Shown piece after piece: positions 19,029 through 58,432 of a DNA stretch of 64,000 nucleotides. Positions within the stretch are counted from its first letter, which is position 1. Every line of letters starts with the position of its first letter. The translations under genes were made by a program, and so were the position numbers. Origin of the DNA: a virus (lineage: Duplodnaviria; Heunggongvirae; Uroviricota; Caudoviricetes); the IMG/VR virus record IMGVR_UViG_2681813318_000003; one strand, given 5' to 3'. The notes beneath the pieces were generated by a model, which saw only the letters and a program-made list of their open reading frames with translations, was not told where the DNA came from and searched no databases.

Positions 19029-19378
19029 GATTAATTCCTTATCGTAAATAACAAATTGTTTTCTTGTTGGTGTTAATTATCGTTGTACGAATAAGGCGTC
19101 AAAGTGGAAAGTTGCGGTAGCCGGACGGGAACAGGTGTGTTTGTCGGTTGCCTGGAGGTAAGAGGTTGGTGTTTTTAGCCTGCGGGAAACAGGATGGTCA
19201 TTTAAGACCACCAATGGTGATGGCCTTAATAATTATCGCCCGATTACGCTAAGGATCTTTTCCTCAACTGATTTGTTGTTGCGACTAAACTGCCTTGCGT
19301 ATCTGATGACAGCAGAGGCGTTTTGCTTTCTGACCATCTCGGCTCTTTCCTTCTGGCGTTTCTTGAAATCGCCCATAT

Positions 19379-19753
19379 TTACCACCAGGCGCAGAAGGTC
19401 AGTCTGTTATTGTGAAAGTCGTGGTTCCTGATCAGGTCTTCCACAAGTTTTTTCAGCTTATCCACGTCATGCCAGTAACCTTCGTCGTACTCCTGACTGC
19501 CGAAGAAAAAACCTTCCCGAGTAGGCAAGTACTCTTCGCAATTGCTTTCGTTTATGTGCATCAAATGAGCCTTCAGAAAACAAATGTCATTCATCGTTAA
19601 TTCTAAAAGCTCACAATTTTCGACTTCACCTACGTTGCGCTCCATCCACCCAACGAGCGCATTGAACTTACGGAAGTAAGCAACCTGCTTTCTGGATGCC
19701 TCGTTATTCAGATCGTTTTTAGGCTGTGTCTCGATATAGATATCAAGTCCCAT
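19379..19753 (-). CDS. Hypothetical early protein
   Basis: ORF trimmed to ATG 19753 (MGLDIY) with SD AAGGAAACC; class A-like motif at 19807-19827. Confidence 0.4.
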   Translation of the reverse strand: MGLDIYIETQPKNDLNNEASRKQVAYFRKFNALVGWMERNVGEVENCELLELTMNDICFLKAHLMHINESNCEEYLPTREGFFFGSQEYDEGYWHDVDKLKKLVEDLIRNHDFHNNRLTFCAWW

Positions 19754-19836
19754 GATGGTTTCCTTATTAAGTTGCTTCAGTGAAATCATTTTCACAAATC
19801 AGATAAGGCAGAAAACAAATTGTTATCGGGCATAAT

Positions 19837-19862
19837 AAAATGGCGCGGTTTGCGCGCCATTT
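19837..19862 (-). terminator. Rho-independent terminator
   Basis: GGCGCGCAAACCGCGCC hairpin followed by ATTTTATT on the minus strand, downstream of gene 19871..20266. Confidence 0.55.
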
Positions 19863-19870
19863 AAAGAGGA

Positions 19871-20266
19871 TTAAGCGAATACGCTTTCAGGGATTAAGGT
19901 GTCGGCAGGAATGCCAGAGGTAATGCGCAGACCGTACTGGCCAATCCAGGTGGTGCTGGTGTTCAGGCTGGAGGCGAATACGGTGTTAACCATATTCATC
20001 ATGGTTTCAAACACCTCTTCATCAACCTGGCGGAAGTAGTTCTCGATTTTCAGCAGCAGCGGGTCAGTTGCATCGAGAATGGACTGGTATTGAGTCGCGT
20101 ACTCGCCGCCGGAGGCATCACCTTTACGCACGATCGTACTGGCCTGTACTTCGGCACCAGTTTCGGTGTTGTACGTAACAACGGTGATTTTTGCCACATT
20201 CTTACCTTCGGCGGTTTCAGAGGCATAGTAAACATCAACTGTCAGTTTTTCGCGTTTAACGGTCAT
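19871..20266 (-). CDS. Hypothetical early protein
   Basis: 131-aa ORF with SD GGAGAG; class B palindrome and a terminator lie upstream. Confidence 0.4.
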   Translation of the reverse strand: MTVKREKLTVDVYYASETAEGKNVAKITVVTYNTETGAEVQASTIVRKGDASGGEYATQYQSILDATDPLLLKIENYFRQVDEEVFETMMNMVNTVFASSLNTSTTWIGQYGLRITSGIPADTLIPESVFA

Positions 20267-20330
20267 TTCACTCTCCGTAGTGTCTTGATTATTTTTCTAT
20301 TTTATAATCGTAGGTATGTACTTACAATAC

Positions 20331-20358
20331 AAAAAAGCCCCGTAAGGATGGCGGGGCT
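20331..20358 (-). terminator. Rho-independent terminator
   Basis: AGCCCCGCCATCCTTACGGGGCT hairpin followed by TTTTTTG on the minus strand. Confidence 0.6.
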
Positions 20359-20392
20359 GTCGTACTGTCGACTAATTACCACTTGCACATTA

Positions 20393-20704
20393 TCAGGCTA
20401 TTGCCATCACTGATGCTCTCTGAATTTCTTGCTGGGCCACGCGGTTAACTTCCATCAAGGCCAGTTCGAGCTGATGTTCCGGCCACATTCTTTGAAATGC
20501 CACCCATCCTTTTCCACGCTGGCGACGAACATTCATTACATAACGAGTAAAGGTGTTTTTATCGAAAGACACCGCTGTTTCACGGAACAGACGAATAGAA
20601 GTTCCATTGGCAACGATGTCTAGCAAAGTTAATTGAGCAACCAGTGCAGGCTTCTCTTTTCTCTTCTGGTCTTTGTCCAGACCAAGAACCAATGATTTTT
20701 TCAT
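20393..20704 (-). CDS. Hypothetical early protein
   Basis: ORF trimmed to ATG 20704 (MKKSLVLG) with SD ACGGAG; class A motif overlaps the leader. Confidence 0.4.
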   Translation of the reverse strand: MKKSLVLGLDKDQKRKEKPALVAQLTLLDIVANGTSIRLFRETAVSFDKNTFTRYVMNVRRQRGKGWVAFQRMWPEHQLELALMEVNRVAQQEIQRASVMAIA

Positions 20705-20857
20705 CACAACTCCGTAAACAACTTGTTTTCTCAATGGCGTAAATAATACCAGTAAGAAAACGGCTACAAAGCATAATGATCAGGTGCATGATCGATATGC
20801 AGGTTCCTCCCTGCGGCTATAGAGAAATTAAGCCAGCATTGCTGGCTTTGGTTGGGG

Positions 20858-21187
20858 TTACTCGAATACTTCAAGAAACTCCTGAACGTCCCAATGCTGG
20901 ACGAGGTGAAGATAGACCTTAGAAATCACGTCATTTTCGCTATCGCATGTGAAGTAGTACTTCTGGCTGCGGTTGTATGTGTCCACACAAAATTCGCTCA
21001 TATCCATAAAGTCAGCATCTTCACCCATGTCGCAAATCATCAAAGCAGGTGCGTCATCACGAGTCATCAGCTCAAGCACCCACCGCGAATTGATCAGAGT
21101 GGAAGACCAACCTTCTAACTCATAAAACTGATCAAACTCTTTTTGAGTTAATTTCTTGATTTGGTTGATGTCGATATTTGCAAACAT
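20858..21187 (-). CDS. Small acidic protein (candidate anti-restriction or DNA-mimic type)
   Basis: ORF trimmed to ATG 21187 (MFANIDI) with SD AAGGA; D/E-rich, about 109 aa; class A motif upstream. Confidence 0.4.
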   Translation of the reverse strand: MFANIDINQIKKLTQKEFDQFYELEGWSSTLINSRWVLELMTRDDAPALMICDMGEDADFMDMSEFCVDTYNRSQKYYFTCDSENDVISKVYLHLVQHWDVQEFLEVFE

Positions 21188-21198
21188 AAAGCAATCCT

Positions 21199-21236
21199 TA
21201 AACAACTTGTTTTCTCGTTGGTGTTATTATCGCAAT
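21199..21236 (-). promoter_or_regulatory. Class A promoter/leader motif (representative copy)
   Basis: Minus-strand reading TTGCGATAATAACACCAACGAGAAAACAAGTTGTTTAA: extended -10-like TGnGATAAT followed by palindrome AAACAAnTTGTTT 10-30 nt before the ATG. Related copies near 19045-19086, 19807-19827, 20714-20750, 24007-24075 (two), 31872-31892 (inverted), 34786-34820, 35501-35537, 36230-36268, 46450-46492 (two), 58371-58408. Confidence 0.5.
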
Positions 21237-21549
21237 AACGCACAGGCGAAAAAGGATTTTATTCCGGTGAATGTTGTTTTGGCAGTGAGTTTTCAGGTTC
21301 AGTATCGAGTACACTTTTTACATTATTCTGATTTAGTGGCCGAAGGTGGCTGGTGGGCAGAATAATCCTCTCCCCGAAAACCTACTGAAATCGATTGTGA
21401 CCCGTTGGCTGTCTGGCACAATTACGCTGTAGCTGGGCATTCAGAGGGAATCCAGCGGTAAGTAAGTTCGCCTGCACGTGAGCGCCTCTCTTCTTCCCGC
21501 ACATTACAGGTGGGTAGCCGCAACTCTCCCTCACGCTATACCGGTACGC

Positions 21550-21690
21550 CGCCGTTCCTGAACCGGCATCGAGCCTTTTCCCGAAATCCACACAGGCAAC
21601 TCGACCGTTTCCCTGAAAACCTCCAGCCGTTCCCCGAAGGCAACCCAGCCGTTTCTGTAGCGGGATGCAACCTTTTCCCTGTATGGACCG
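21550..21690. repeat. Second cluster of CCGTT(T)CC(C)nGAA(A) direct repeats
   Basis: CCGTTCCTGAACC, TTTTCCCGAAATCC, CCGTTTCCCTGAAAACC, CCGTTCCCCGAAGG, CCGTTTCTGTAGC, TTTTCCCTGTATGG; same orientation as cluster 18385-18535. Confidence 0.5.
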
Positions 21691-21699
21691 AAGGCTGAC

Positions 21700-22750
21700 C
21701 GTAGGGGTGTTACGGGGGATAAAATCAGGAGTTGAATAAATACGAAAAAGGAGGCGACACCCCTCCTTCCCTCCCCACTTATACATACCTGGCTTCTTCG
21801 CTATACACGTTGTGTTTTCTGCGTGTTTTATCTGTCTCAACCTCTCTATGGGCGTTAATGCACACTCCTTCCAGAACGTTCTATACGGCGACTATTTCTG
21901 TTGGTGAATTGGGTGTGTTGTTTTCTCTGTCGGTGTATGTGGTTTCGTTAGTTTTGCGGTGGTTCTTCTATGGGGTGTTCTCGTCGTTTTGGTGATTGTT
22001 CTTCTCCGTCTATGGAGTAATGGCAGGTGGGCGATTCCTTTCGTTATTGTGTTTGAGTTGTTTGTCTGGAGTGCGTGAAGGGCTTTTGTAGTTATTCGTG
22101 TATTGGGTAATGGCGTTTCCCGTGATTGTTATGTTTCGTGTCTTTTGGGATTGAGAGAAACCTTGCGGTTACAGGCTTCGTTGGGGTTTCAGTGATTCTG
22201 ATGTTTCTTCGCTGTTTGGGTAATGGCGTGTCGTGGGTATCGCGCGTATGAATGTTTTCGGATTGCCTGTGAAAGTTAGGTTGGTTCTCCGGTAGCCTGG
22301 GAAGAAGAGGTGGGTCTTTTCGGTAGCCTGCCATAAAGAGGTTGGTTGTTTTGGGAATGGCATATGTGTTATTTAGTTGTTTTGTTATGCCTGAAAATAA
22401 GTTGTTTATATGGTTATGTAACGCAACGGGAACGATTTTGAGCGTGTGTTTTTGTTGGTAGTGTGTTGGGTCGTCTGTGGTGAAAATTGGACGCTGTGGC
22501 GCTGTCTGCTGCGTAGAATTACGGGTATAAGCAGTGATGTGTGAAAACGTCAATTTTTTAGACCAAATCGGGTGAAAGCGTTGATGTTTCGTTGATCTGT
22601 TATTCAGTTGTTTTCTTGATTGTATAAACAACTATAACTTATTGATATTTAAGGATGTGATTGCGGGTATGGAAGGGGAGTAGTGGCGATCAACGGATTC
22701 TTATAGAAAAGAATCAAATTGTGACCGCCATTATCAATGAGTTGCAACCG
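21700..22750. other. About 1-kb non-coding tract with strong G+T skew on the plus strand
   Basis: No credible ORF; recurring GGTAATGGCG-type units at roughly 100-bp spacing (about 22010, 22095, 22215) and CGGTAGCCTG..AGAGGTGG duplicated. Confidence 0.4.
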
Positions 22751-23320: not shown

Positions 23321-23472
23321 TCCATCACATAAAAATCGCGTTTATATATTATCAATTTTCTCACTTGTATAACCTAAATACGCATCCGTTTATCAATCCA
23401 CCTTCCACAAACATCAGCTTTAGCTATGAAAAATAACAATCTCAAAGTGAAAACCATTATCATAGGAAACGA

Positions 23473-23658: not shown

Positions 23659-23694
23659 AAATTCTCCGTTGTCTAGTATGAAGCGATTGCCGGA

Positions 23695-23994
23695 TTACCA
23701 TTGCCAGCACTCTAGCCCTTCAACGACCGGTGCACCACAATCAAAATGTACAGAGTCAAAGCCTACATCAAGTACTTTCTGAATGTTCGCAATCGCGCCC
23801 TCGGATATACCATATCGACGCAACTCATCTTTCCAGTCATCGTCCTGTAACCCGGCGTGGACAATGCAACCGTACTCAATTTGTGAAACCCAATCCAGCT
23901 CATTGCTTGCGATCATGAATCGGCGAGCATCTTCCTCTGATGTATGAGATGAGCTGATCAATGCCACCTGGTAGGCTTGGGTAATGTTCAACAT
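23695..23994 (-). CDS. Hypothetical early protein
   Basis: ORF trimmed to ATG 23994 (MLNIT) with SD GGAGTGG; two class A motif copies upstream. Confidence 0.4.
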   Translation of the reverse strand: MLNITQAYQVALISSSHTSEEDARRFMIASNELDWVSQIEYGCIVHAGLQDDDWKDELRRYGISEGAIANIQKVLDVGFDSVHFDCGAPVVEGLECWQW

Positions 23995-24006
23995 TTCAAC
24001 CACTCC

Positions 24007-24075
24007 AAAACAAGTTGTTTTCTTATGTGGTTTATTATCTCCATCAACAAAAGGCAGAAAACAAATTGTTTTAGG
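24007..24075 (-). promoter_or_regulatory. Two tandem class A motif copies next to the host-like block
   Basis: AGAAAACAACTTGTTTTGG and AAAACAATTTGTTTTCTGCC on the minus strand, ending about 35 bp from the metG terminator. Confidence 0.45.
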
Positions 24076-24109
24076 TACTGTGTAAATCAGAAGGGATTGT
24101 GTCTATATG

Positions 24110-24136: not shown

Positions 24137-24155
24137 GCGAAGAGAGGTTGTTTAA

Positions 24156-31353: not shown

Positions 31354-31803
31354 TCAAACTCCTTTGCGAAGCTCAGCGGCGAAGGCTACTGCGTGATCAT
31401 GATGTTCAAGTGTGTATGCATACTCCGCAAACATCTCCACGCCCTGCGCACGTACTTCAGCCAGAAAAGCATCGGTGGCTGGAGTCTCCGTCAATTCGCT
31501 AACCCAATTATCTCCGTGTTCCTCGGCACACATCGCATCGAATGCTCGCTCAGATTCTTTCAGGGCTGCATTCTCCGCCGCTAATGCGTCTCTTTGCGCC
31601 CGCAACTTCTCAATTTCGGCAGCCATGTAGTAACCAACCATAGCGAAGACGGCAAAAGAGTTGTCTGCCTCATCAGGCGACACTGAGGCCATTAGCAGGC
31701 CATCGTAAAAATCGTGACTCCCATTGGTGATCGCCACCGCATAGGAGTCGTGGTTCTCGCGCTTGTGAATGAGAACTACGGGATTTTCGATTTTGTTACT
31801 CAT
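31354..31803 (-). CDS. Hypothetical protein
   Basis: 149-aa ORF; conserved start context AGAGAAAAACACATG; inverted class A motif about 70 nt upstream. Confidence 0.4.
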   Translation of the reverse strand: MSNKIENPVVLIHKRENHDSYAVAITNGSHDFYDGLLMASVSPDEADNSFAVFAMVGYYMAAEIEKLRAQRDALAAENAALKESERAFDAMCAEEHGDNWVSELTETPATDAFLAEVRAQGVEMFAEYAYTLEHHDHAVAFAAELRKGV

Positions 31804-31941
31804 GTGTTTTTCTCTTCTTTGCTGTTACATAAGCACTACCAAGTGCTGGTTTATTTTCACAAATAAGAAAATGTAGAAAACAATTTATTTAAGGCCATAA
31901 GTTATGGCCTTTATTTATTCATGCAGAAGGATTTGTAGCGC

Positions 31942-33026: not shown

Positions 33027-33087
33027 GTGTTTTTCTCTTATCGTTTAGTTATTACATTCTTACACAAATTAAGTAAGTATTTACCTA

Positions 33088-34773
33088 TCATTTAACGCAT
33101 TTGAAAACGTATACGCTGACTGTGATCCCTGTGTCTTCAAACTCGTTGGTAAACGACTTCCCTCTGGCATAAACGTAATTATCCATCGTCATCCAGTCCA
33201 GTATTGGCGCAGTGCCCGGCAATACTGCTACAAGACGCCCGCCGACTTTCAGATGCCCCAGCGCAGCCAGCGTGTGCTCTCTATGACGACCAAGCGAGTA
33301 CGGCGGGTTCATAACGATTTTGTCGAACTGATAACCTGCGTTGTCCTCAGACCACTTTATGAAGTCGCAGCAAATCGTGTTCGTATACCCTTTTCCACGC
33401 AGGATATCAGCGAAGAGAGGTGCGATTTCTATGCAGGTAACATCTTCCAGATCGGCGTTAATATAGGCCAGAAGATCCCCACGTCCGGCTTGAGGCTCCA
33501 ACAGCTTCTCACCAGGCTTCAATTCAGTGGCTCTGGCAACGTACTCAGCAATCAAGCGTGGGGTAGGGTAGAACTGGTGTGATTTTGTATCCGGTATTAA
33601 ACCGGTAGCCACAATCGTATTTAGCGTATGGCCGATCTCATACGGGAACTGCCAGTGCTTTTTCTCCTGCACGCCGCCAATGAAGCTCAGTGTGCGCTCA
33701 AGCTCTTCCACCTGCGACTTCTGGAGAGCTGAATCAGAGAAGTACCATACGCCTTTGTCTTTGCTCAATCGCCCGTCACGAAGCGCAGTGCGAACCGGCA
33801 TGGAGATCGTCTTCTGGATTAACCCGAACTGCTTTGGTGCCCGTGTTTTTGGCGCAGTTCGGCATGGCGCGGGAATTGCAGCAGGCATACTGTAAGCCAG
33901 CACCTCATTCAACTTCCAGGCCACGTCAGGATGTATTTCAAAGTGAACGTTGCCGTTCTTGAACATCTTCACGCGCATCAGATTTCCATCGACGTTCATC
34001 CAGTCACCGGTCTGGCAGTCGTTTGCCCGATACGCAGCTGATAGCACCTCAGCAGTGCGGTTGATGGTAATAAATTCTTTGTGCGCGAAGAAATGAAGCA
34101 AGACACGCAGATCGTCGATGTAGTCCTCTTTGCGATAGTTCACGCTAACGCTGTCCCGCCAGAAATCAGAAATGCAGTCAGCGATTATCAGACGCTCGCT
34201 GAAACCGTTTGTCTTATTTGTCTTGTGCGCAGGACTCAGCGCCTTAAACAAGCCATACACGCGCTCAGAGAGATATTTGTGCCTGTCATTCAGCAAATTA
34301 AGCATCGTGGGTATGACCGTTTCTGCTTTGAACTCCGGTACACCAACGAACTCTTTAACCTTCATCTGGTAGCCGGTTCTGTCAGTTTTGATGACTTCCT
34401 GTTTGCCCTCTATAAACTGCTCGCGCCACTCATCTCGACGGGAAGCTGGCATGATCAGCAAAACGTTAGTCATATCCGTGACCTTCCTCCAGTACTCGGC
34501 CCAAATATTCTGTTTCACCCATTCCAGATCGACTTTATCCAACCAACCTCGATTTAAACGCGAGCGATCTTCATCTGGTCGATGGTTTAGTCGCAGCAGG
34601 CGATTAATCATGTTGTGGCGTTCGTCGCCATAAACGAAGTCGTGTACCTGATACATGAAGGCGATCTCTTTCTCGCACTCGGCCACGATTTCGTGGATGA
34701 CATTCATTTCCTGACGATAGTCGATAGCCGTGTTTGAGCTGGCATCGTCGATGATGGAAAGGGCTGTATTCAT
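33088..34773 (-). CDS. DNA N6-adenine (or N4-cytosine) methyltransferase with large N-terminal domain, orphan
   Basis: C-terminal SAM-binding LLEPQAGRGDL and catalytic IVMNPPY; 561 aa; no restriction endonuclease partner nearby. Confidence 0.6.
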   Translation of the reverse strand: MNTALSIIDDASSNTAIDYRQEMNVIHEIVAECEKEIAFMYQVHDFVYGDERHNMINRLLRLNHRPDEDRSRLNRGWLDKVDLEWVKQNIWAEYWRKVTDMTNVLLIMPASRRDEWREQFIEGKQEVIKTDRTGYQMKVKEFVGVPEFKAETVIPTMLNLLNDRHKYLSERVYGLFKALSPAHKTNKTNGFSERLIIADCISDFWRDSVSVNYRKEDYIDDLRVLLHFFAHKEFITINRTAEVLSAAYRANDCQTGDWMNVDGNLMRVKMFKNGNVHFEIHPDVAWKLNEVLAYSMPAAIPAPCRTAPKTRAPKQFGLIQKTISMPVRTALRDGRLSKDKGVWYFSDSALQKSQVEELERTLSFIGGVQEKKHWQFPYEIGHTLNTIVATGLIPDTKSHQFYPTPRLIAEYVARATELKPGEKLLEPQAGRGDLLAYINADLEDVTCIEIAPLFADILRGKGYTNTICCDFIKWSEDNAGYQFDKIVMNPPYSLGRHREHTLAALGHLKVGGRLVAVLPGTAPILDWMTMDNYVYARGKSFTNEFEDTGITVSVYVFKCVK

Positions 34774-34920
34774 AATTACACCATTAAATAATTTGTTTTC
34801 TTATTGGTGTAATTATCGCAAACTTGAAAAGGCATAAAAGCTGCATTCATAGGCGTTACAGCAGATTTAAGGCGTAAAAATGGGGGCTTTCGCCCCCTGT
34901 CGACTTGTGCGGTATTAGAA

Positions 34921-35484
34921 TTATGCGTATTGCGTTTTGTGCGGTTGCTTATTCAAGTCGTGGCGATGCGTAAGCTCCCGCATCATGTCTTCAAGCCGAC
35001 TTTTCGTATCATCAAGCTGGTCGGCCATTGCTCCCAAAAGCTGGCGAACGGCCATTGGATCGTCACTGTTTAGTGATGGCATTTTATATCCCGCTTTAGA
35101 AGACATAAGATTGATTGCAGACATCAACATCGTTAGAGAAGACTTAAGTCCGGCAATTTCACGATCTTTGCTGGCAATAATCGTCTCACTATTGTTACCG
35201 TCATGGGTTCCTTGAGTCTCGCTCACCATATCCAAAGTCGCCTGCAACTTATTAGCGCGCTCTTTTTCAGCAAGATAATGAACACCGAAATGGTGTGCCA
35301 AAGCTACAACCTGAGTTGGCTCTTCAAAGGTGGAATTAAAATTAAGTACTGTAAACAGTCTCTCAAATATAGAAACGTCTTCTGTTCCCCGAACAATGCC
35401 TAACATTTTGACAAGTTCATTAGCATCCATTTCTTCGAATAGGGCGTTTTGTTCATCAGCTATTGCTTTGCATTTCTCGCACAT
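34921..35484 (-). CDS. Hypothetical protein
   Basis: 187-aa ORF with start context AAGGAAAACACATG and a class A motif upstream. Confidence 0.4.
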   Translation of the reverse strand: MCEKCKAIADEQNALFEEMDANELVKMLGIVRGTEDVSIFERLFTVLNFNSTFEEPTQVVALAHHFGVHYLAEKERANKLQATLDMVSETQGTHDGNNSETIIASKDREIAGLKSSLTMLMSAINLMSSKAGYKMPSLNSDDPMAVRQLLGAMADQLDDTKSRLEDMMRELTHRHDLNKQPHKTQYA

Positions 35485-35781
35485 GTGTTTTCCTTAATGC
35501 TTAAACAAGTTGTTTTCTAATTGGATTTATTGTGATGTGGCATAAAAGGGGAGCAAGCTAAACGTAAAGGTGCAAACTCTCTATTTCGGTCAACGAAACA
35601 CAAGGGCCATTTGGCCCTTGTCATTAACACGTTGCTTTACGGACTAGCGGATAAGCGAAGTAGATCGCCAGGCCAATGAGGACGCCATCAGAAATGACAG
35701 ACATCATCTTTCCCGTAAAATCCACCAACACCGCCATCACCAGAAGAGCAATGACGGTCACAAGCCGGAATCTCTCAAGCA

Positions 35782-36207
35782 TTAGAGATAAGCATCCAGT
35801 GACAACTGAAGCGCCTGGGCTATCTTTTTCAGCGCCTGCTCTTCTTGTTCTCCAATACCGTCTTGGTCGGCAATATCAAGGCACAGACACAGAACATCGA
35901 CCGCCTCTGGAGTACCCGCAATATCAGACAGCTCACGAATAGCCTGTGCATTAGCAGAACGAGGGGACGCTTCGTAACGAGCACGGATATTGGCGCTCAT
36001 TTGGGCAATTTCACCAGCAAACGGAGAAAACGCAGGCAGAGCTGCAATTGTCTTCTCAAGAATGGCAATTTCTTTTGCGTCACATGTGCCGTCGGCATAG
36101 GAGATCATGTACGCGCCCCACACGGTGGCCTCAACCGCATCACGGTTCTCCATTTTTTTGACTTCAATAACAGCTTTACGAGTTTTCTTTTTGAAGAAAC
36201 CTAACAT
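35782..36207 (-). CDS. TerB-like domain protein (tentative)
   Basis: YADGTCDAKEIAILEKTIAALPA segment resembles the TerB fold signature; class A motif upstream. Confidence 0.35.
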   Translation of the reverse strand: MLGFFKKKTRKAVIEVKKMENRDAVEATVWGAYMISYADGTCDAKEIAILEKTIAALPAFSPFAGEIAQMSANIRARYEASPRSANAQAIRELSDIAGTPEAVDVLCLCLDIADQDGIGEQEEQALKKIAQALQLSLDAYL

Positions 36208-36300
36208 GTGTTTTCCTTTTATTATTTGTCAGAACAAGTTGTTTTCTAGTTTCATAAATTGCTTGCGCAAAGATGGTCAATGCATATGCACTAACAACCG

Positions 36301-36993: not shown

Positions 36994-37138
36994 GTGGACT
37001 CCATCCAGTGTCAGAAAGAGTTGCGGCTGGCGATTGCCAGCCGCCTTTCTCGTTCCATCCTGGAACTGTGTCTTACCGACACATTGTCATCCTGACGCCG
37101 ATAAGATACATGATTTAATATGATAGGTAAACACTTAC

Positions 37139-37732
37139 TTACCACTTGTTGTAAATAAAACCAATGTCTTTCTTGTGAGGCGTATCGGCTGCGGAAAAAG
37201 CTGCGATCTTCGCGAGTCGATCACATATTTCATTTTCACGATGCCCGGCGTGACCTTTAACCCACTTCCAGCGAACATTATGTCGACTTGCGGCCTCATC
37301 CAGACGTTTCCACAGATCAACATTCTTTACCGGTTTTTTATCAGAAGTCATCCATCCATTACGTTTCCACCATTTCATCCACTGTGTCATGCCGTTTTTC
37401 AGATACTGGCTATCAGAGTACAAAATAACGTTGCATGGATATTTCAAACGCTCCAGCCCGATAAGTGCGCCCATCATCTCCATGCGGTTATTGGTGGTGC
37501 TATGAAAACCATCTGAGAACTCGCGTTCCTCACCACGATACTGGAGAACGATACCGTAACCGCCCGGGCCACCCGGATTTTTAAGGCAAGAGCCATCACT
37601 AAAGATTTTCACGGTTTTGAGCTGGGGATTGAACTCTACGACAGGCGTTGTGGGATTGGTGCGGGGAGAATTTTTGTTTTTGTCTTTTTTGCGAGTTTTT
37701 GCTTGCGATCGGGCTGGTGTCTTCGTCGTCAT
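37139..37732 (-). CDS. Ribonuclease HI with basic N-terminal extension
   Basis: [58 protein letters not shown] align to E. coli RnhA catalytic motifs; start at ATG 37732 with SD CAGGAG. Confidence 0.85.
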
Positions 37733-39336: not shown

Positions 39337-39357
39337 GATAGGTAAGTGATTACCTAT
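39337..39357. promoter_or_regulatory. Class B palindromic motif (representative copy)
   Basis: GATAGGTAAGTGATTACCTAT, 8-bp arms ATAGGTAA/TTACCTAT, about 12 nt upstream of the Dam ATG. Related copies near 963-982 (perfect 20-bp palindrome TAGTAAGTATATACTTACTA), 4542-4559, 7964-7983, 10003-10017, 13253-13274, 20309-20331, 33070-33089, 37121-37145, 44177-44198, 48890-48913, 53571-53593, 59511-59535, 63035-63062. Confidence 0.5.
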
Positions 39358-42172: not shown

Positions 42173-42648
42173 TACGACCTTCTGTATACGATCTGCGAAA
42201 AGCCAGGCTCTTCCTCGCTGGCTCGTTGGGTATAAGCTGTTTCAACAGGCACAAAGCCTAAGTTACGCATCATGCTTGCCGGGAAGAATGCATCGGCGTT
42301 TGGTACATCAACGCCGATGTGGGAGAGCCAAATCTCTTCAACATGCGGCATGAATAGCGAGTAAATTTGTTCCCCGCCAATCACCCACACAGGCTCTGGT
42401 AATCGCAACACATCATCCACACCAGCAGGGTAGAATCCATTTGGTACAAAGCCATGAGAGCGCGTCAAAACGAGGTTATGACGCTCTGGAAGAGGGCGTT
42501 TGAGACTTTCCATCGTTTTACGCCCCATAACAACAGTGGCGTTTTTGGTGAGTCTCTTAAATAGCTTCAGATCGGTAGAACAACGCCAGGGCAGTTCGTT
42601 CGCTATGCCGATCTCATAGTTACGGCCAACAGCAGCTATCATCTTCAT
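42172..42648 (-). CDS. Dihydrofolate reductase
   Basis: 158 aa, MIAAVGRNYEIG..LPW N-terminus and VVMGRKTMESL motif typical of DHFR; adjacent to thymidylate synthase. Confidence 0.75.
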   Translation of the reverse strand: MKMIAAVGRNYEIGIANELPWRCSTDLKLFKRLTKNATVVMGRKTMESLKRPLPERHNLVLTRSHGFVPNGFYPAGVDDVLRLPEPVWVIGGEQIYSLFMPHVEEIWLSHIGVDVPNADAFFPASMMRNLGFVPVETAYTQRASEEEPGFSQIVYRRS

Positions 42649-45281: not shown

Positions 45282-46424
45282 TTACAGGTCTGCAAACTGG
45301 CTTAGAGAAGCCTTATCCACGGTAGAATCGATCTGACCTACCAGATATGTGCTTTGCTCTGCCTCTTGTGGTGCAATTTGCAGTGTGTCGGTTAACAACC
45401 ACTTGTTCATCCAGACCAGCGGATCTGTGGTAACTTCTGGAAATAAAGCCTTCAGGCCAAGACGATTCATAGCCAGATTGGTGCGGTATTTTACATAGGT
45501 CTTCAGAATATCCGCGTTTAAACCAATCATCGAACCGTCTTTGAAGAGATAGTCTGCCCAGTTCATTTCTTGTTCGGCGACTGATTTCATGGTGTCGTAA
45601 ATGACGTTTTCTTCATCAGCAGCAATCTCTTTCCACAATAAACCTTCGCGACCGGTACGCATGAAGCGGATCATGCGTTCAGTTCCTTCGCAATGCAGAG
45701 CTTCATCACGGGCAATAAAGCGCATAATTTTGGTGTTGCCCTCAAGCAACTTCCGTTCGCCAAAGGCAAACGTACATGCAAAACTTACATAGAAACGGAT
45801 CGCCTCAAGCGCATTAATGGACACCAACGTGCGGAAAAGCTGACGGTGCAAAGGGTATGGCTCCCAGCCATATTCATTTACGTACAGACGTTCAAACTCT
45901 TTCTCACCTAACGACTGGCGCTCGCAGGTCATCCCATAAAGCCTGTCATATTCAGCAGAGATACTGATCGCTCGGTTGATGATTTCTTCATCCGTAACAA
46001 TACCGTTAAAAACAATGCTCGGATCGTCCACCATGCCACGAATAATGTGGGTGTAGCTGCGGCTATGGATAGTCTCAGAGAAAGACCATGTTTCAACCCA
46101 CGTTTCCAGTTCAGGAATAGAGATAAGCGGCAGCAGCGTTGCATTTGGGCTACGTCCCTGAACTGAATCGAGTAACGTTTGATAACGGAGATTGCTCAGA
46201 AAAATGTGACGTTCGTGGTCCCGCAGCTTCGTGTTGAAGTCGATACGATCGCTCGAAATATCAACTTCTTCCGGCCGCCAGAAGAAAGACAATTGACGTT
46301 CAATCAACTTTTCAAAATCACGGTATTTTTGCTGATCGTAACGTGCCACGTTGACAGATTGTCCGAGGAACATAGGCTCTTTGGTTGCATCATTAGCACC
46401 CAAACGGAACGTTGAATATGACAT
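45282..46424 (-). CDS. nrdB: Ribonucleotide reductase class Ia small subunit
   Basis: 380 aa, co-linear with E. coli NrdB ([39 protein letters not shown], iron ligand region EALH..GT, C-terminal SYLVGQIDS). Confidence 0.9.
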
Positions 46425-46504
46425 GTGTTTTCCTTTTGCTTATTGATGTGTTTAAACAAGTTGTTATCTTATTTGTTTAAACAAGGTTTACAAATCAAAG
46501 AGAA

Positions 46505-46528: not shown

Positions 46529-48844
46529 TCAGATTTTGCAGGCTCCGTCGCACTCATCTTCTGGCTCGACGGCTACAGCTTGCGTCAGTGGATTCTGCGG
46601 TTCGTCGTCATCACGCTTTCCTGCCCCATCTCTGGTGTTGTGGTAGTAAAGCGTTTTAACTCCCATCTTGTAGGCGAGAAGCAAATCTGACAGTAGCGTC
46701 ATCATTGGGACTTTATCGCCTTCAAAGCGAGAAGGGTCATAGTTGGTATTGGCTGAAATAGCCTGGTCAAAGAACTTCTGGATGATCGCCACCTTTGTCA
46801 GATAGCCGCGGTTGTCCGGCATATCCCACAGGTATTCATACTGTTCCTTCAGTTTTTCAAACTCAGGCACGACCATCTTAACGATGCCGTCCTTAGAAGA
46901 TTTCACCGACACCGGGCCACGAGGCGGTTCGATGCCGTTGGTGGAATTAGTGATCTGGCTGGAAGTCTCGCATGGCATTTGTGCCGTCAGTGTGGAGTTG
47001 CGAAGGCCGTATTTTGCAATACGTTCACGCAGTTCTTCCCACGGCATCTTTAACTCAAAGTTGGTTTCGCCACTTTCGTCTAATGAAGAACGGTAATGGT
47101 CGATCGGCAACTGACCAATTGCGTACTTGGTCTGCTCAAACCAGTCACACTCACCTTTTGCTTCAGCAAGTCGGCAGCTGGCATCAAGAAGGTAATACTG
47201 GATAGCTTCGAACGTTTCATGCACCAGTTTATTGCCAGCGGTATCAGAATAACGAACGCCATTCTTTGCCAGGTAATAAGCAAAGTTGGTTACACCAATT
47301 CCCAAGCTACGACGAGCTTTGGCAGGCACTGCGGCTGCCTCCATCGGATAGTCTTGATAATCCAGTAACGAATCCAGTGCAGCAACGGCATAGAACGCCA
47401 CCTCTTTAAGAGACTCCAGTGAACGGATGGCTCCGAGGTTAAAAGCGGATAAAGTGCATAGCGCGATCTCACCGTTCGGGTCGTCGGTAAATGCCAGTGG
47501 ACGAGTGGGTAGAGTGATCTCCATGCACAGGTTTGACTGGCGGACAGGTGCAAGAGCAGGAATGAAAGCGCCATGCTCATTAATATGATCGACGTTCGCA
47601 ATATAAATTCGGCCCGTGGACGCTCGTTCCTGCATCAGAGATGAGAACAGCTCAATGGCAGACACTGACTTCTTGCGAATTGAATCATCGGCTTCGTATT
47701 TATGGTACAGCTTTTCAAACAGATCCTGGTCTGTGAAGAAGGCTTCGTACATATCAGGCACATCATGCGGGCTGAACAGAGTGATGTTCTCGCTTCTGAC
47801 GAGTCGACGGTACATTAGACGGTTACTCATGACGCCGTAATCAAGATGGCGAACGCGGTTTTCATCAATACCACGGTTATTTTTCACCACCAGCAGACTT
47901 TCAACTTCAAGATGCCAGATCGGGTAAAACGCTGTTGCTGCGCCACCACGAACACCACCTTGCGAACAAGATTTAACAGCCGTCTGGAAATGCTTCAGGA
48001 ATGGAATAACTCCGGTATGGGTGGCTTCACCATTGCGGATCTCGCTGCCCAGCGCACGGATACGGCCAAAACCAATACCAATTCCAGCACGACGTGAAAC
48101 GTAGTCGATAATTGCGGCTGAAGCTGCACTAATCCCTTTCAGACTATCGCCAGACTCAATCAGCACACAACTGGAGAACTGACGGGTTGGAGTACGGACG
48201 CCGGCCATGATTGGTGTGGGCAGAGACAGTTTGAACGTACTTGTAACGTCATAGAAACCTTTGACCATCTCCATACGTGTTTTACCAGCGCAGTCGTCTT
48301 CCCAATTCTGGAACAGACACATGCCTACCAGCATATAGATATGTTGCGGCCCCTCATGAATCTCACCAGTAACACGGTTTTGAACGAGGTATTTGCTTTG
48401 CAACTGCACCGTAGCTGCATAGCCAAAAAGATCGTCACGTTTCGGCTTAATGTAATTGCCGAGTTCTTCGATCTCTTCAAACGAATAATGTGTCAGCAAA
48501 TCCTTGTCATAAACGCCCTTGTTAACGTTCTTGACAATGTGTTGGTAGAAGTTCGGATAGTCGTAACGACCGAAGGCATCTTTGCGGATTTTAAAAATGT
48601 TCAGGCGGGCAGCCACCTGTGAGTAATTTGGTGCTTCTGGTGAGATCAAATCAGCGGCAGATTTAACCAAAGCCTCATGCAACTGGCTGGTGGTAATCCC
48701 ATCAAAAATGCTGGCCGCAGCTCCCATTGCTACAGCGGATGCGCTTACACCACGAATGCCTTCTACGCCATACATTACGACGCGGTTGTATTTTTCTTCG
48801 GATAACGGCTCTGTTTGGCCGTTACGTTTTACGATGCTTATCAT
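46529..48844 (-). CDS. nrdA: Ribonucleotide reductase class Ia large subunit
   Basis: 771 aa, N-terminal ATP-cone region and active-site region NLCMEI, C-terminal Cys pair; directly upstream of nrdB. Confidence 0.9.
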   Translation of the reverse strand: MISIVKRNGQTEPLSEEKYNRVVMYGVEGIRGVSASAVAMGAAASIFDGITTSQLHEALVKSAADLISPEAPNYSQVAARLNIFKIRKDAFGRYDYPNFYQHIVKNVNKGVYDKDLLTHYSFEEIEELGNYIKPKRDDLFGYAATVQLQSKYLVQNRVTGEIHEGPQHIYMLVGMCLFQNWEDDCAGKTRMEMVKGFYDVTSTFKLSLPTPIMAGVRTPTRQFSSCVLIESGDSLKGISAASAAIIDYVSRRAGIGIGFGRIRALGSEIRNGEATHTGVIPFLKHFQTAVKSCSQGGVRGGAATAFYPIWHLEVESLLVVKNNRGIDENRVRHLDYGVMSNRLMYRRLVRSENITLFSPHDVPDMYEAFFTDQDLFEKLYHKYEADDSIRKKSVSAIELFSSLMQERASTGRIYIANVDHINEHGAFIPALAPVRQSNLCMEITLPTRPLAFTDDPNGEIALCTLSAFNLGAIRSLESLKEVAFYAVAALDSLLDYQDYPMEAAAVPAKARRSLGIGVTNFAYYLAKNGVRYSDTAGNKLVHETFEAIQYYLLDASCRLAEAKGECDWFEQTKYAIGQLPIDHYRSSLDESGETNFELKMPWEELRERIAKYGLRNSTLTAQMPCETSSQITNSTNGIEPPRGPVSVKSSKDGIVKMVVPEFEKLKEQYEYLWDMPDNRGYLTKVAIIQKFFDQAISANTNYDPSRFEGDKVPMMTLLSDLLLAYKMGVKTLYYHNTRDGAGKRDDDEPQNPLTQAVAVEPEDECDGACKI

Positions 48845-48917
48845 GTATCACCAAATAAAGAGGGCCACTAAATATAGTGGCCCATGTTAATAGATAAGCA
48901 CTTACCTATCAACGAGA

Positions 48918-54040: not shown

Positions 54041-54187
54041 ATAGTTGTATTAGTTTTGAGGGTTTGTCTCTTAAAGGATTACCATTACTTGGATGAGTAA
54101 ATTTTAAACAGGAAAAGTTCTAAAAGCCAATGAGCGCCTATGTAACGAGCGCTCTTTTTTTGTTTGTGGATGGGCCTACTAAACCAT

Positions 54188-54841: not shown

Positions 54842-54918
54842 ATGTCATTTTTCTGTGATTGTTAGCCGAGGCAACGATAACCCACCAGGTGCGCCGAAGG
54901 TAGTAAATGCCTGTTTTA

Positions 54919-55145
54919 ATTATTCACATATCCACAGGATAGATCCTAATAAAGAGATCCATAGATAGATCCTTGTATAGATCAAATAAGATCCCCGATC
55001 GCTGTAAGCCGCGCCACGACTGGTCTGAAGCCATGTTCATGTATGCTACCAGCGGTAATTGATAGTCTGTCAACGGTTCGCCGTATGCTGCCAACTGTTT
55101 TTGGTATGCTGCCAGCGGCAAATCAAGTATGCTGTCAGCGGTTGA
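54919..55145. promoter_or_regulatory. Plasmid-type replication origin: tandem DnaA boxes, GATC-rich repeats, upstream iterons
   Basis: TTATTCACATATCCACA (two overlapping DnaA-box matches), six GATC sites within about 60 bp in AGATCC units, then four iteron copies GTATGCT(G/A)(C/T)CAGCGG at about 55041, 55083, 55104, 55127. Confidence 0.7.
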
Positions 55146-55162
55146 ATGACAAAGGTGTCCAC

Positions 55163-56257
55163 ATGTCCACAAAAAATAAAAAAGGTAAAAATAACAAAGA
55201 AGTAGAAGATAATCTCGACAACTTTGAAGAAGGTTCCCTTGAATTGTACACAGGGGAACTTGTCCCTAATAGCAACAATACAGTCCAACCAATTGCGTTG
55301 ATGCGGCTGGGGTTGTTCGTGCCCACGCTCAAGGGGACAAAATACAGCAAGCGTAACAAGCCAAATGAGATCGATGCTTCAAAGGAGCTTGTTCAGCTCG
55401 AAGTAGCCCGTTCTGAAGGTTATTCCGATATCAAGATAACCGGTCCTCGTCTCGACATGGATCATGATTTCAAAACGTGGGTGGGCGTTGTGCGTTCGCT
55501 GGCAGAATACGGCGAACCTAACGGTCGTGTCGAGTTAAGCATCACGAAATTTGCGAAGTTTTGTGGCTATCCATCGTCACAGATCCGCAAAACACTCCGC
55601 GACCGGCTTACAAACAGTCTTTTGAAGATCATGCGTACAACTCTGTCTTTTCAGAGAACGTATGAAGAAAAGAACGTCGACGGCTCTAACAAGATCTCGC
55701 TTCTGATGGTGCACCTCATCAATAGCGTGGACTACAACGAGCAGAAAGATACGGTGGTGTTCTATGCAGAACCGAAGCTGGCCGAACTATATCGCTTTGA
55801 CCATAAGGTTCTTTTGCAGTTAAAGGTTATCAATAAGCTACCACGCAAAGAAACAGCACAGGCTCTGTACACCTTCATCGAAAGTCTTCCAACCAAGCCT
55901 GCGCCGGTATCGCTTGCTCGATTACGTGCGCGACTCAATTTGAGTAGCAGGAATGTCAGCTCGCAGAATCAGACTATACGTAACGGCTTAAAAGCTCTCC
56001 AAGATTTGGGCTATCTCGAATACAGCGAGATTAAGCGAGGGCGGTCGATCTATATCCAGATTCACAGCCGCAATCCAAAACTCAAAGTCGCACCGCCAAA
56101 ACCTGAAGACATCGAACCCAAAAAACCAGATGAGAAAGCTGGGGAAATTGATGCCAAACAGAACATTATCAACAAGATAACCGAACTTTCGCAGAATTTG
56201 ACGCCTGAAAATATCAAGATGATTGAGATCCTTTCCAATAGTCTCAAACTGCTTTGA
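55163..56257 (+). CDS. repA: Iteron-binding replication initiator (RepA-like)
   Basis: 364-aa ORF flanked on both sides by same-orientation iterons; start taken at ATG 55163 (MSTKNKKGK) after SD AAGG; architecture matches P1-type incC-repA-incA replicons. Confidence 0.7.
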   Translation: MSTKNKKGKNNKEVEDNLDNFEEGSLELYTGELVPNSNNTVQPIALMRLGLFVPTLKGTKYSKRNKPNEIDASKELVQLEVARSEGYSDIKITGPRLDMDHDFKTWVGVVRSLAEYGEPNGRVELSITKFAKFCGYPSSQIRKTLRDRLTNSLLKIMRTTLSFQRTYEEKNVDGSNKISLLMVHLINSVDYNEQKDTVVFYAEPKLAELYRFDHKVLLQLKVINKLPRKETAQALYTFIESLPTKPAPVSLARLRARLNLSSRNVSSQNQTIRNGLKALQDLGYLEYSEIKRGRSIYIQIHSRNPKLKVAPPKPEDIEPKKPDEKAGEIDAKQNIINKITELSQNLTPENIKMIEILSNSLKLL

Positions 56258-56792
56258 TATGCTGTCAGCGGTGAAATGTATGCTATCAGCGGCTATTTTT
56301 CTGAAAAGTATGCTGTGAACGGTTAAAGATATGCTACCAGCGGTATAGTGAGATAAACGTATGCTGTGAGCGGTAAATCATCTATCACCACTCAATGCTC
56401 TGGCATACCTCCCCAGTGGTTACTAACCTCGAAGAGTGCATTCCATATAGGTTTGCGCTCACTAACATTCTATTGCCGTTGCGCTGATTGCTTGTAGTGA
56501 AAGGCATTTATTGCCTGCTGCTCCCTGATAGAACGTATGCTGTCAGCGGTGTTTTATTGAGGAATTTTTGTTTGGATATGCTATCAGCGGTAATTAATGG
56601 TATATGTCAGACCTTCGTATGCTGCCAGCGGTAATTTTGTTCTGGTTATAACCATACCGGTACACATTATTCATGCAATGTCTTAAGTATGCTGTCAGCG
56701 GTAAAAAATCGAGTAAAGTATGCTGTGAGCGGTGAGATAAACTCTCGATATGCTATCAGCGGTAATTGATTGTGTATGCTGTCAGCGGTGAC
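56258..56792 (+). repeat. Downstream iteron arrays (incA-like), about 12 copies
   Basis: 19-bp units (G)TATGCTGTCAGCGGT(A/G)A at about 56258, 56279, 56308, 56329, 56359, then after a 150-bp spacer at 56535, 56576, 56617, 56687, 56718, 56748, 56774; irregular spacing. Confidence 0.8.
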
Positions 56793-56836
56793 GACTATGA
56801 AATATGACTGCGGCACGTGCCGCAGTCAGTTTGCAT

Positions 56837-57049
56837 TTAGTGTATTTTCTTTAACAGACCCCAAAGTGTTCCGGCTTTTGTAGTCAGTTTTCCTGTTTCT
56901 GGATCGTACATACGCCATTCACGCCGCTGGTGGACGATATACCCATCTTCACGTTCCAGACGCTCAAGAATGCCAGGCTGCTTGAAACCCTTAGCACGCC
57001 AGTAGCCGCTTGTTTTCTCGATTTCCAGACCTGCCAGTGTTAATGCCAT
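56837..57049 (-). CDS. Hypothetical small protein
   Basis: 70-aa ORF, start overlapping the stop of the upstream gene. Confidence 0.35.
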   Translation of the reverse strand: MALTLAGLEIEKTSGYWRAKGFKQPGILERLEREDGYIVHQRREWRMYDPETGKLTTKAGTLWGLLKKIH

Positions 57050-57384
57050 TATCCAACCTCCTTGCAGTCATCGAAAAGGTAGCTTTGCTGAGAAGCGTGA
57101 ACGCCATAGAAGCCCTTGTATTTGTTGTATACGAAGTGGTCTTCTCCGACGCCGGTTAATTTGCCATTACGGTTTGTGAGATATGGGGATGACAATACTC
57201 GATCGTCACGCACTACATAGAACTGGTCGCCGCTGTCTACGACCATCGCGCCATATGGTGCTTTTATGACGTCGGTAAAAGCGCCATTCTTAATGTCGGC
57301 TACAGACATTTCACACTGATAAACAGTGGTGTCGGCCACAACGATCGAAGAAAGGAACAACAAAGCGAATGGGATGGCCTTCAT
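57049..57384 (-). CDS. Secreted or periplasmic protein
   Basis: 111 aa with signal peptide MKAIPFALLFLSSIVVA. Confidence 0.45.
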   Translation of the reverse strand: MKAIPFALLFLSSIVVADTTVYQCEMSVADIKNGAFTDVIKAPYGAMVVDSGDQFYVVRDDRVLSSPYLTNRNGKLTGVGEDHFVYNKYKGFYGVHASQQSYLFDDCKEVG

Positions 57385-57560
57385 GCTGCCACCTCTTTGA
57401 TTACATCAAATGCTGAATTAAATACGAGCACGATAGCCAAAGCGTTTATGACTACTTCGTTCACCGGGGAAAATACTTTACGAATGACACCAGTGAAAAT
57501 GCAGTCGATGACAAAAGCTATTGACACGATGAGTAACAAGTATTCAATAAAAATCTTCAT
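57381..57560 (-). CDS. Small membrane protein (below the ORF-track size cutoff)
   Basis: 59-aa ORF read manually (MKIFIEYLLLIVSIAFVIDCIFTGV...); its stop overlaps the next start as ATGA; two hydrophobic segments. Confidence 0.3.
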   Translation of the reverse strand: MKIFIEYLLLIVSIAFVIDCIFTGVIRKVFSPVNEVVINALAIVLVFNSAFDVIKEVAA

Positions 57561-57599
57561 GATAGGTAGATACTAACTTATATAAATTTTACTGTAAAC

Positions 57600-57875
57600 T
57601 CACTCAAAAGTGCTGATGCTTAAAATACGCTCAAGATGTGCGGCATCTTCATCACTGATTTGTTGAGTCTCTTCTACGTACCAACAGTTGCCGTTATGCC
57701 AACAAACACCATCATCATCAACCATCACTGAATCAGCGTCATGACCTGTATATTCAACGAGAATGTGCTGGATCAGCGCGTCAGTTTCTTCGTCGTTAAG
57801 GCCATCGGCTTTGACCATAAAAAGCGGAAACACGTCATAGACAGTGCTGGTAACGATTCGAACTAAAACTCTCAT
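57600..57875 (-). CDS. Hypothetical small acidic protein
   Basis: 91-aa ORF with start context AAAGGAAAAACACATG. Confidence 0.4.
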   Translation of the reverse strand: MRVLVRIVTSTVYDVFPLFMVKADGLNDEETDALIQHILVEYTGHDADSVMVDDDGVCWHNGNCWYVEETQQISDEDAAHLERILSISTFE

Positions 57876-57930
57876 GTGTTTTTCCTTTTGTGGTTAGTGT
57901 TTACTTATTTTGTTAGTTATGAATAGGCGA

Positions 57931-58356
57931 TCAATCTTCTTGTTTAGGGAAAAACTGTTCAATAACTCTGTCAACGGCTGTGTCTATATGGAGTAGATGC
58001 CACACAACCATATCTTTGCTTCCCATGCCTTGTGTGAATATCACGTCATACTTACGCCATGCGCAGTGGAACCAATATGCTGAGTCATCAATTGGTAAAT
58101 CCTCTCCCGCCTCTTTGAAGTATTTCAGCAGCATTGCCTGCTCTGCCGTTGGCGTTGGACCTATTTCCTGAGCGTACATACGGATGAATCGCTGCCAGTC
58201 TGTCTCGTCGGGGGTTGGATCTGGTGGGGTCATTTCTGCGATAGCGTTTCGTAGCTGATGCGCCCAATCAGGTTCAGGAAAGCCTTTTGCTACTTCATCA
58301 TCAATAACATCCAGAGCCACGTTTGCGGCATCGTAGAGTTTCTTAATAGCTGTCAT
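57931..58356 (-). CDS. Hypothetical protein
   Basis: 141-aa ORF; class A motif upstream. Confidence 0.4.
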   Translation of the reverse strand: MTAIKKLYDAANVALDVIDDEVAKGFPEPDWAHQLRNAIAEMTPPDPTPDETDWQRFIRMYAQEIGPTPTAEQAMLLKYFKEAGEDLPIDDSAYWFHCAWRKYDVIFTQGMGSKDMVVWHLLHIDTAVDRVIEQFFPKQED

Positions 58357-58404
58357 GTTTTCTTATCCTTTTAAACAAATTGTTTTCTTAATAAGATAAT
58401 TGCG

Positions 58405-58432
58405 ATAAAAAAGGCGTCCAACTGGACGCCTG
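58405..58432 (-). terminator. Rho-independent terminator (GGCGTCC hairpin family)
   Basis: AGGCGTCCAGTTGGACGCCT followed by TTTTTT on the minus strand; same stem family at 59545-59570 and 61877-61906. Confidence 0.65.

Follow-up and report, generated by a model that had tools for sequence, protein, structure and literature searches.

The 64,000-nucleotide stretch of viral DNA analysed here (the window; IMG/VR record IMGVR_UViG_2681813318_000003) is an Escherichia coli phage-plasmid of the SSU5/pHCM2 type, sharing 97–98% identity with Escherichia phages Cyrano and CMS-2020a across 20 kb, and contains dispersed copies of a perfectly symmetric dyad, AGAAAACAAnTTGTTT. In the arrangement that we refer to as class A, the dyad lies in gene leaders at a fixed distance downstream of a −10-like hexamer. 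We interpret class A as a promoter cassette combined with an operator that would be read on duplex DNA by a two-fold symmetric DNA-binding protein, the promoters concerned forming one repressed regulon, and assign this interpretation a probability of about 0.58.

The dyad is 13–19 bp long, with AGAAAACAAnTTGTTTTCT as its full symmetric form. At up to one mismatch, the window contains 15 copies of AAACAAnTTGTTT, where 0.55 would be expected, and none of 100 shuffles reaches 15. A position weight matrix (PWM) spanning class A from the −10 hexamer through the palindrome gives 10 matches of 33–46 bits, all on the minus strand, with 16.7 as the top score of 50 shuffles. The dispersed element reported in a preliminary description of this DNA is thus real, and it is not equally frequent in shuffled sequence. 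All ten copies are in gene leaders and share one minus-strand layout: an nnnAAT hexamer, exactly 13 nt that include AGA (consensus aACaCCAAnaAGA), the dyad, a Shine-Dalgarno sequence (SD) and ATG. The hexamer is GATAAT in the best copies, often with TGn directly 5′, and its position would place the palindrome at about +8 to +20, in agreement with the earlier suggestion that it falls at the start of the transcript. The distance from dyad to start codon is 4–29 nt, where 10–30 nt had been given.

Nine of the class-A palindromes lie within 19045–58408, an interval for which at least 12 had been counted; that number is attained only by adding three palindromes of a different arrangement, class B (19813, 24059 and 31878). 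From left to right, and all on the minus strand, the class-A matches are 19047–19081 (dyad 19049–19061; 35.1 bits), 20 nt from the start codon of the open reading frame (ORF) 18546–19028, a homolog of CYRAN_111 of Cyrano; 20714–20748 (dyad 20716–20728; 39.7 bits), with the extended −10 TGGTATTAT, before the CYRAN_106 homolog at ~20393–20704; 21198–21232 (dyad 21200–21212; 46.1 bits, and 43.9 with a PWM for the promoter cassette), with TGCGATAAT, before the CYRAN_105 homolog at ~20858–21187; 24006–24040 (dyad 24008–24020; 42.9 bits), before the CYRAN_101 homolog at ~23695–23994, just downstream of metG; 34784–34818 (dyad 34786–34798; 43.4 bits), again with TGCGATAAT, before the DUF4942 methyltransferase gene at 33088–34773, its footprint being available across six genomes; 35501–35535 (dyad 35503–35515; 45.0 bits), before the CYRAN_87 homolog at 34921–35484; 36230–36264 (dyad 36232–36244; 33.6 bits), before the TerB/TciA-like gene at 35782–36207; 46452–46486 (AGA and dyad 46454–46466; 41.3 bits), before nrdB at 45282–46424 and with no recognisable −10 at 13 nt; and 58371–58405 (dyad 58373–58385; 36.2 bits), before the CYRAN_58 homolog at 57931–58356, whose operon ends with a P1 Cra-like gene (56837–57049). 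The downstream genes, which include small accessory genes, the methyltransferase, the TerB/TciA-like gene and nrdB, are those originally named. The tenth copy is outside this interval, at 9931–9965 before terS (9235–9867), with CCTAAT, 13 nt, AGA and the dyad at 9933–9945 (36.8 bits), and is kept in Cyrano, SSU5, Kluyvera and Yersinia pestis elements.

The −10 region varies among these copies. It is an exact extended −10 (TGnGATAAT or TGnTATTAT) at 21200, 34786 and 20716, lacks TG at 19049 and 24008 (the Cyrano and SSU5 orthologs of 24008 carry it), and is a bare nnnAAT at 35503, 36232, 58373 and 9933. The proposed 38-bp consensus with TGnGATAAT describes about half of the copies (exactly at 21200 and 34786, approximately at 20716, 24008 and 19049), but the rest have only nnnAAT, 13 nt, AGA and the dyad.

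In class B the dyad comes first, followed by TCTGCC, 13 nt and then (TGn)GAAAAT or GATAAT, and it is fixed 19 nt 5′ of the −10 box, which would be about 38 bp upstream of the transcription start. The copy at 19813–19825 (minus strand) precedes a TGTGAAAAT promoter, TCTGCC and N13 intervening, and the CYRAN_108 homolog at 19379–19795, and that at 31878–31890 (minus strand) precedes a TGTGAAAAT promoter of an Eae-like gene (31354–31803) and has an SSU5 ortholog at 85602. The third, at 24059–24071 (minus strand), belongs to the same promoter as the class-A dyad at 24008, so that two dyads exactly 51 bp apart flank one promoter. This 51-bp pair is kept in Cyrano, in Klebsiella and in SSU5, which has two such pairs, the upstream dyad of the second carrying two mismatches. 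At terS, a second dyad (9908–9920, minus strand) lies 25 bp centre-to-centre downstream of that at 9933, a spacing shared with Cyrano and SSU5 and repeated, at a different gene, in a Klebsiella plasmid. Across four genomes, close dyad pairs have only 25-bp and 51-bp spacings. Sites of both classes are without exception in gene leaders and in sense orientation.

The dyad is the unit here, and looks like a duplex-DNA recognition site. The half-site GAAAACAA occurs 14 times on the sense strand against 1.3 expected, with the second half following at 0–1 mismatch in nine and random in the rest; orphan half-sites are mostly within coding sequence. A dyad-anchored alignment of six orthologous sites, drawn from elements of three genera (E. 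coli, Salmonella and Klebsiella), gives an identity of 0.94 in the left half, 0.94 in the right half and 0.93 in AGA, compared with 0.28 at the centre and 0.51–0.54 in the flanks. Mismatches in imperfect copies are one-sided and never compensated. As an RNA stem the dyad would contribute only −0.7 kcal/mol, the leaders are no more structured than shuffles, and Rfam covariance models at gathering score give no match in the whole window; an RNA hairpin or a known RNA family was accordingly rejected as the nature of the element. Class A carries AGA 5′ of the dyad and class B carries TCT 3′ of it, and the full site is therefore taken to be AGAAAACAAnTTGTTTTCT. The outer flank is occupied by the SD in class A and adjoins an upstream terminator in several class-B copies, where the dyad, being upstream of the −10, would be outside the adjacent transcript. 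Equal halves, a free centre and uncompensated mismatches are what recognition by a factor of two-fold symmetry would produce, as had been proposed, and would suit an operator for a symmetric DNA-binding dimer, most likely a repressor.

The sites were compared across relatives of the window. Salmonella phage SSU5 is ~79% identical to it, and the first 25 kb of the window are ~99% identical to many 100–120 kb E. coli plasmids. The metG-apbC block and its flanks recur on such plasmids at ~98–99% identity, with at least 80% of the stretch present in 149 records; what had been called a metG-mrp block is therefore regular phage-plasmid cargo and not a segment of host chromosome. The PLSDB database contains more than 800 plasmids with the FljA-like hallmark gene of the family, including Salmonella Typhi pHCM2-type plasmids, Y. 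pestis pMT1 and many Klebsiella plasmids. The Cyrano plus strand corresponds to the minus strand of the window, which is the sense strand of most genes. A literature search found no study of gene regulation in the SSU5/pHCM2-type family and no paper containing the 13-mer.

The whole Cyrano genome has 18 dyads, including additional ones before parA, the replicative helicase gene, cobT and CYRAN_110; 16 of these 18 are outside annotated coding sequences, in a genome that is about 86% coding. SSU5 has 20, at orthologous promoters, and two Klebsiella plasmids have 11–12 perfect dyads in 40 kb while their proteins are typically 30–70% identical to those of Cyrano. A de novo count of 6-n-6 dyads in the Klebsiella plasmids ranks the class-A dyad first, followed by a separate GTAAGT/AAGTAA-type dyad. 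Kluyvera and Y. pestis elements also retain it, and the TAACAA variant at the nrdB site is kept in all three genera of the dyad-anchored alignment. By contrast, no dyad is present in the syntenic 21 kb of relatives from Morganella, Xenorhabdus (two species) and Halomonas or of two metagenome-assembled genomes (MAGs), and the complete 108-kb Pectobacterium plasmid Drgb1, with a TerL 80% identical, shows no dyad enrichment and a single match at up to one mismatch. The sites are thus under symmetric purifying selection and confined to one clade, the Enterobacteriaceae branch. Scanning viral contigs for the exact pattern returned mostly chance singletons, plus multi-copy matches on ~100-kb contigs.

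The 38-bp element does not hold together as one unit, since the promoter cassette is also found without the dyad, and the dyad at other types of promoter and at about −38. A 42-nt PWM for the promoter alone identifies 8–10 cassettes per genome, some of which have only the left half with the SD directly after it, and others no dyad; a relative without dyads yields three weak copies, on the sense strand. The methyltransferase promoter is informative here: its footprint of GCCTTTTC, N9, TGnnAtAAT and tACAnCAAtAAGAAAA is kept from E. coli to Pectobacterium, whereas only the E. coli, Salmonella and Klebsiella copies carry the dyad, and the Cyrano copy has lost it, the right half-site being gone. 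Conversely, the dyad accompanies non-cassette promoters at terS, parA, the helicase gene, cobT, nrdB and CYRAN_58. The class-A element is, as judged from these comparisons, an older extended −10 promoter cassette of ~42 bp together with a separable dyad, which is an innovation of the Enterobacteriaceae branch, added to the older promoter family.

In the mechanism that we favour, the first part of the element would be a sigma-70-type, largely −35-independent extended −10 (TGnGATAAT) promoter cassette, and the second part, the operator dyad AGAAAACAAnTTGTTT, would be bound by a putative dimer, probably able to pair into tetramers. The dyad centre would be about 14 bp downstream of the transcription start in class A and at about −38, over the −35 position, in class B, with some promoters having both, 51 bp apart. 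The two dyads in the late terS leader, 25 bp apart, would be bound cooperatively, and cooperativity may also extend across the 51-bp pairs. All of these positions would be inside the RNA polymerase footprint, where a bound protein should prevent initiation or promoter escape, and from this we infer repression as the direction of control. The predicted regulon would comprise ~15–20 promoters, including those of the replicative helicase, nrdB, cobT, the DUF4942 methyltransferase, TerB/TciA, many small accessory genes, parA and terS.

Expression data for the Cyrano lysogen LF82 are available, with a median normalised count of 9.8 (RNA sequencing; PMC9928086, S1 table). The first genes behind dyads have counts of 7.1 (terS), 7.8 (cobT), 12.9 (nrdB), 7.0 (tciA), and 5.7, 7.1, 7.5, 12.8, 12.2 and 6.7 for others (PMC9928086). 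The helicase gene is at 21 and CYRAN_111 at 25, and parA, at 49.8, is the only clearly expressed dyad gene (PMC9928086). Ciprofloxacin induces Cyrano 39-fold. Because the −10 boxes are near consensus, the silence of dyad genes is compatible with repression, and the idea of a co-regulated set gains from its retention across genera and its silence in the lysogen.

Several observations weigh against this interpretation. The Cyrano methyltransferase promoter, without its right half-site, is equally silent, the gene still being at background (7.8; PMC9928086), and silence may therefore not depend on the dyad, which weakens the case for repression. The left half, AGAAAACAA, belongs to a conserved leader in cassettes without a right half, so part of its conservation could reflect promoter or leader function. 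The nrdB, helicase and parA sites have no clear −10 at the class-A distance, and a generic sigma-70 −35/−10 scan does not call the class-A promoters. No DNA-binding protein assignable to the dyad emerged from Pfam, PHROGs or screens for presence and absence, and among annotated regulators only the FljA-like protein follows the clade, its fold being of an RNA-binding type.

This last protein, encoded by a FljA-family gene (PF03614) at 15661–16179 on the plus strand and having a tandem Sm/Hfq-like fold, is a candidate reader only if control acts on RNA: it would bind the A-rich and U-rich halves beside the SD, block translation and destabilise the mRNAs. We consider this unlikely, as exact two-fold symmetry, equal halves and a free centre fit duplex DNA better, about one fifth of the sites are upstream of the −10 and outside the adjacent mRNA, and no stable RNA structure is present. 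The FljA-like protein also falls to 33–36% identity in the Klebsiella elements, where the dyad is unchanged, its co-occurrence with the dyad is weakened by a remote FljA homolog in the dyad-less Pectobacterium, and nothing similar is present in the fliC leader of E. coli K-12. A resemblance of the element to the fliC leader or to a sigma-28 promoter was excluded by reading the sequence. There is a rather small chance that the tandem-Hfq-like FljA homolog of the element reads the dyad as single-stranded nucleic acid, in the nascent 5′ leader or on the non-template strand exposed when the polymerase pauses or has just begun transcribing, much as RfaH reads ops. If true, proteins of the FljA type would act globally, after initiation, on a whole phage-plasmid regulon, and the repression of flagellin would be a special case of this.

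Recognition on duplex DNA need not involve a protein of the element itself. A transcription factor of the enterobacterial host would tie the regulon to host physiology, and could account for a dyad that is invariant in E. coli, Salmonella, Klebsiella, Kluyvera and Yersinia elements while most proteins diverge to 30–70%, that is absent in relatives from Pectobacterium, Morganella, Xenorhabdus and Halomonas, and for which the element encodes no standout candidate. To our knowledge, however, no enterobacterial factor has this consensus, and the literature search for the 13-mer gave nothing; such a reader seems somewhat less plausible than an RNA-level operator, though a little more so than recognition of single strands. 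A dedicated trans-acting factor could also be dispensed with altogether if the sites were copies of a duplicated promoter/moron cassette with inverted-repeat ends (GTTTTCT...AGAAAAC), reflecting common descent, recombination joints for module shuffling or dispersed partition sites. The 42-bp cassette does recur 8–10 times per genome, with half-site-like ends even where the full dyad is missing, the accessory genes behind it differ between relatives, and one dyad is at the parA promoter. But dyads are present at non-cassette promoters (terS, helicase, cobT, nrdB and parA) and stay fixed while their flanks fall to ~52% across genera, 12 positions are kept around an unconstrained central base, the ParB-type dyad differs in sequence, and the par genes have just one site nearby; we find this the least probable of these explanations. 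An operator read by a symmetric DNA-binding protein, encoded by the element or by its host, thus remains the interpretation that we prefer.

The search for that protein, the existence of which we infer, yielded mainly candidates to set aside. Both ParB homologs are disfavoured because they persist in the dyad-less Morganella, Xenorhabdus, Halomonas and Pectobacterium relatives, and the parB promoter carries a different dyad, TAAGTA-N6-TACTTA, that co-varies in outgroups. The same argument disfavours a highly conserved 88-aa protein encoded upstream of the terS dyads (C123), which is present in all dyad-less relatives. The helix-turn-helix (HTH) repressor CYRAN_45 is disfavoured because SSU5 lacks it and because its switch region contains another dyad, GGTAAGtgCTTACC, also found ahead of nrdA and dam. 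The FljA-like protein was rejected as a classical DNA-binding repressor, having no HTH, a tandem Sm/Hfq fold and an unchanged dyad where it is only 33–36% identical; nor is its co-occurrence with the dyad perfect, since hhalign detects the remote homolog in Pectobacterium, which also means that absences by tblastn are unreliable. For the product of the ORF after parA (C29), a candidate centromere-binding global regulator, the Pectobacterium parA promoter has no recurrent alternative dyad, and a de novo k-mer search for a motif replacing the dyad in Pectobacterium gave nothing beyond AT-rich words of low complexity. Among the small proteins that every dyad-bearing genome has and that go undetected in Pectobacterium are CYRAN_34, 35, 37, 38, 59, 61 and 62, the last being Cra-like and in a class-A operon; Pfam and PHROGs gave no function for these small candidates.

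The region at 10063–11891 (minus strand), just upstream of terS, encodes homologs of CYRAN_121–123, two ABC-type ATPase-like proteins and the 88-aa protein, which are among the most conserved of the family, at 78–86% in diverged Klebsiella elements and 40–64% in the most distant MAG relatives, with a single good Halomonas match at 60%. In Pectobacterium Drgb1, an annotated Hfq (48354–48575) is directly upstream of the replicative helicase, where E. coli elements carry a class-A dyad.

The principle of dispersed operators is known from P1 C1 and from KorA and KorB of RK2, and by sequence this dyad belongs to neither family. The P1 C1 repressor recognises asymmetric 17-mers (ATTGCTCTAATAAATTT) dispersed over promoters for replication, recombination, methylation and accessory genes. 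The parallels are a plasmid-prophage with one type of site over many promoters, overlapping or just downstream of the −10, in one immunity-type regulon; unlike the C1 operators, AAACAAnTTGTTT is symmetric and does not match ATTGCTCTAATAAATTT, and the likely master repressor, of the CYRAN_45 type, appears to use another dyad. KorB of RK2/RP4, a ParB homolog, binds a 13-bp palindrome (TTTAGCSGCTAAA) at 12 sites, with KorA as a second global regulator. Here too a perfect 13-bp palindrome is dispersed in varied promoter positions, including just upstream of the −35, over replication, partition and accessory operons and the par promoter, but its sequence is unrelated, and both ParB homologs persist without it and are associated with a different dyad. 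Phage-plasmid N15 has four SopB centromere sites, bound by a ParB-type protein, dispersed in promoter regions; these inverted repeats among phage genes couple maintenance with phage gene expression in N15, whereas the ~18 sites here have no link to ParB.

In its placement the class-A dyad, centred shortly downstream of the probable start, resembles Lac O1, which is centred at +11. Lambda-type cooperative operators are ~24 bp apart centre-to-centre, and by analogy the 25-bp tandem at terS suggests pairwise cooperativity and the −38/+14 flanking pair promoter clamping, although the 51-bp spacing is shorter than that of classical loops. In Salmonella phase variation FljA represses through the 5′ untranslated region of the fliC mRNA; the element encodes a homolog of FljA, and the class-A motif is in a leader beside the SD, the place at which a protein of this kind would work, but the target is unlike the fliC leader and is a DNA-type dyad that also occurs outside transcribed leaders.

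Several other repeats were noted. A second dispersed dyad, TAAGTA-N6-TACTTA or GGTAAGnnCTTACC with the shared core GTAAGTGnTTAC, is at 966–983, 6457–6474, 13255–13272, 33070–33087, 37124–37141, 39341–39354 and 48893–48906 in the window and at 42606–42619 in Cyrano. Its copies are found between parB and uvsW, which are divergent, in front of dam and nrdA and, in Cyrano, within the CYRAN_45 repressor switch, and it persists with co-varying sequence in outgroups without the class-A dyad (TAGGTA.. in Morganella, TAAGTC.. in Photobacterium and AAGTAA-N4-TTACTT in Halomonas). It is probably an older, family-wide operator or parS-like system. Fourteen copies of an iteron-like repeat, GCTGACAGCATAC, at 55104–55139 and 56257–56786 (minus strand) flank repA (55043–56257, plus strand) and presumably form the plasmid origin and control region.

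The terS leader (9876–9945, minus strand) contains, besides its two dyads 25 bp apart, a GC-rich hairpin (9887–9906) and a T-run just 5′ of the SD, a terminator- or attenuator-like structure hinting at antitermination control of late genes. A/C-rich, G-poor sequence of ~750 nt at 21900–22650 (minus strand) has degenerate dyads, only a weak TTG ORF and no Rfam match; it includes a degenerate class-A-like copy at 22599–22633 (minus strand; 21.5 bits) and a further dyad at 22395–22407. The translation-initiation block AAGGAAAACACATG is common to several genes, recurs at 35482–35495, 36205–36218, 46422–46435 and 59480–59493 (minus strand) and is kept in SSU5 and the Klebsiella relatives.

Phage-plasmids of the SSU5/pHCM2 type are very common in Enterobacteriaceae, and the present analysis separates at least two operator systems in them. 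The regulon predicted for the class-A dyad would link replication, deoxynucleoside triphosphate supply, DNA methylation, accessory and defence-type genes, partition and the late operon. As dispersed-operator regulons are already known from P1 and IncP plasmids, such a regulon, if confirmed, would be useful rather than surprising, and the 19-bp duplex AGAAAACAAGTTGTTTTCT offers a bait with which its putative regulator could be isolated.

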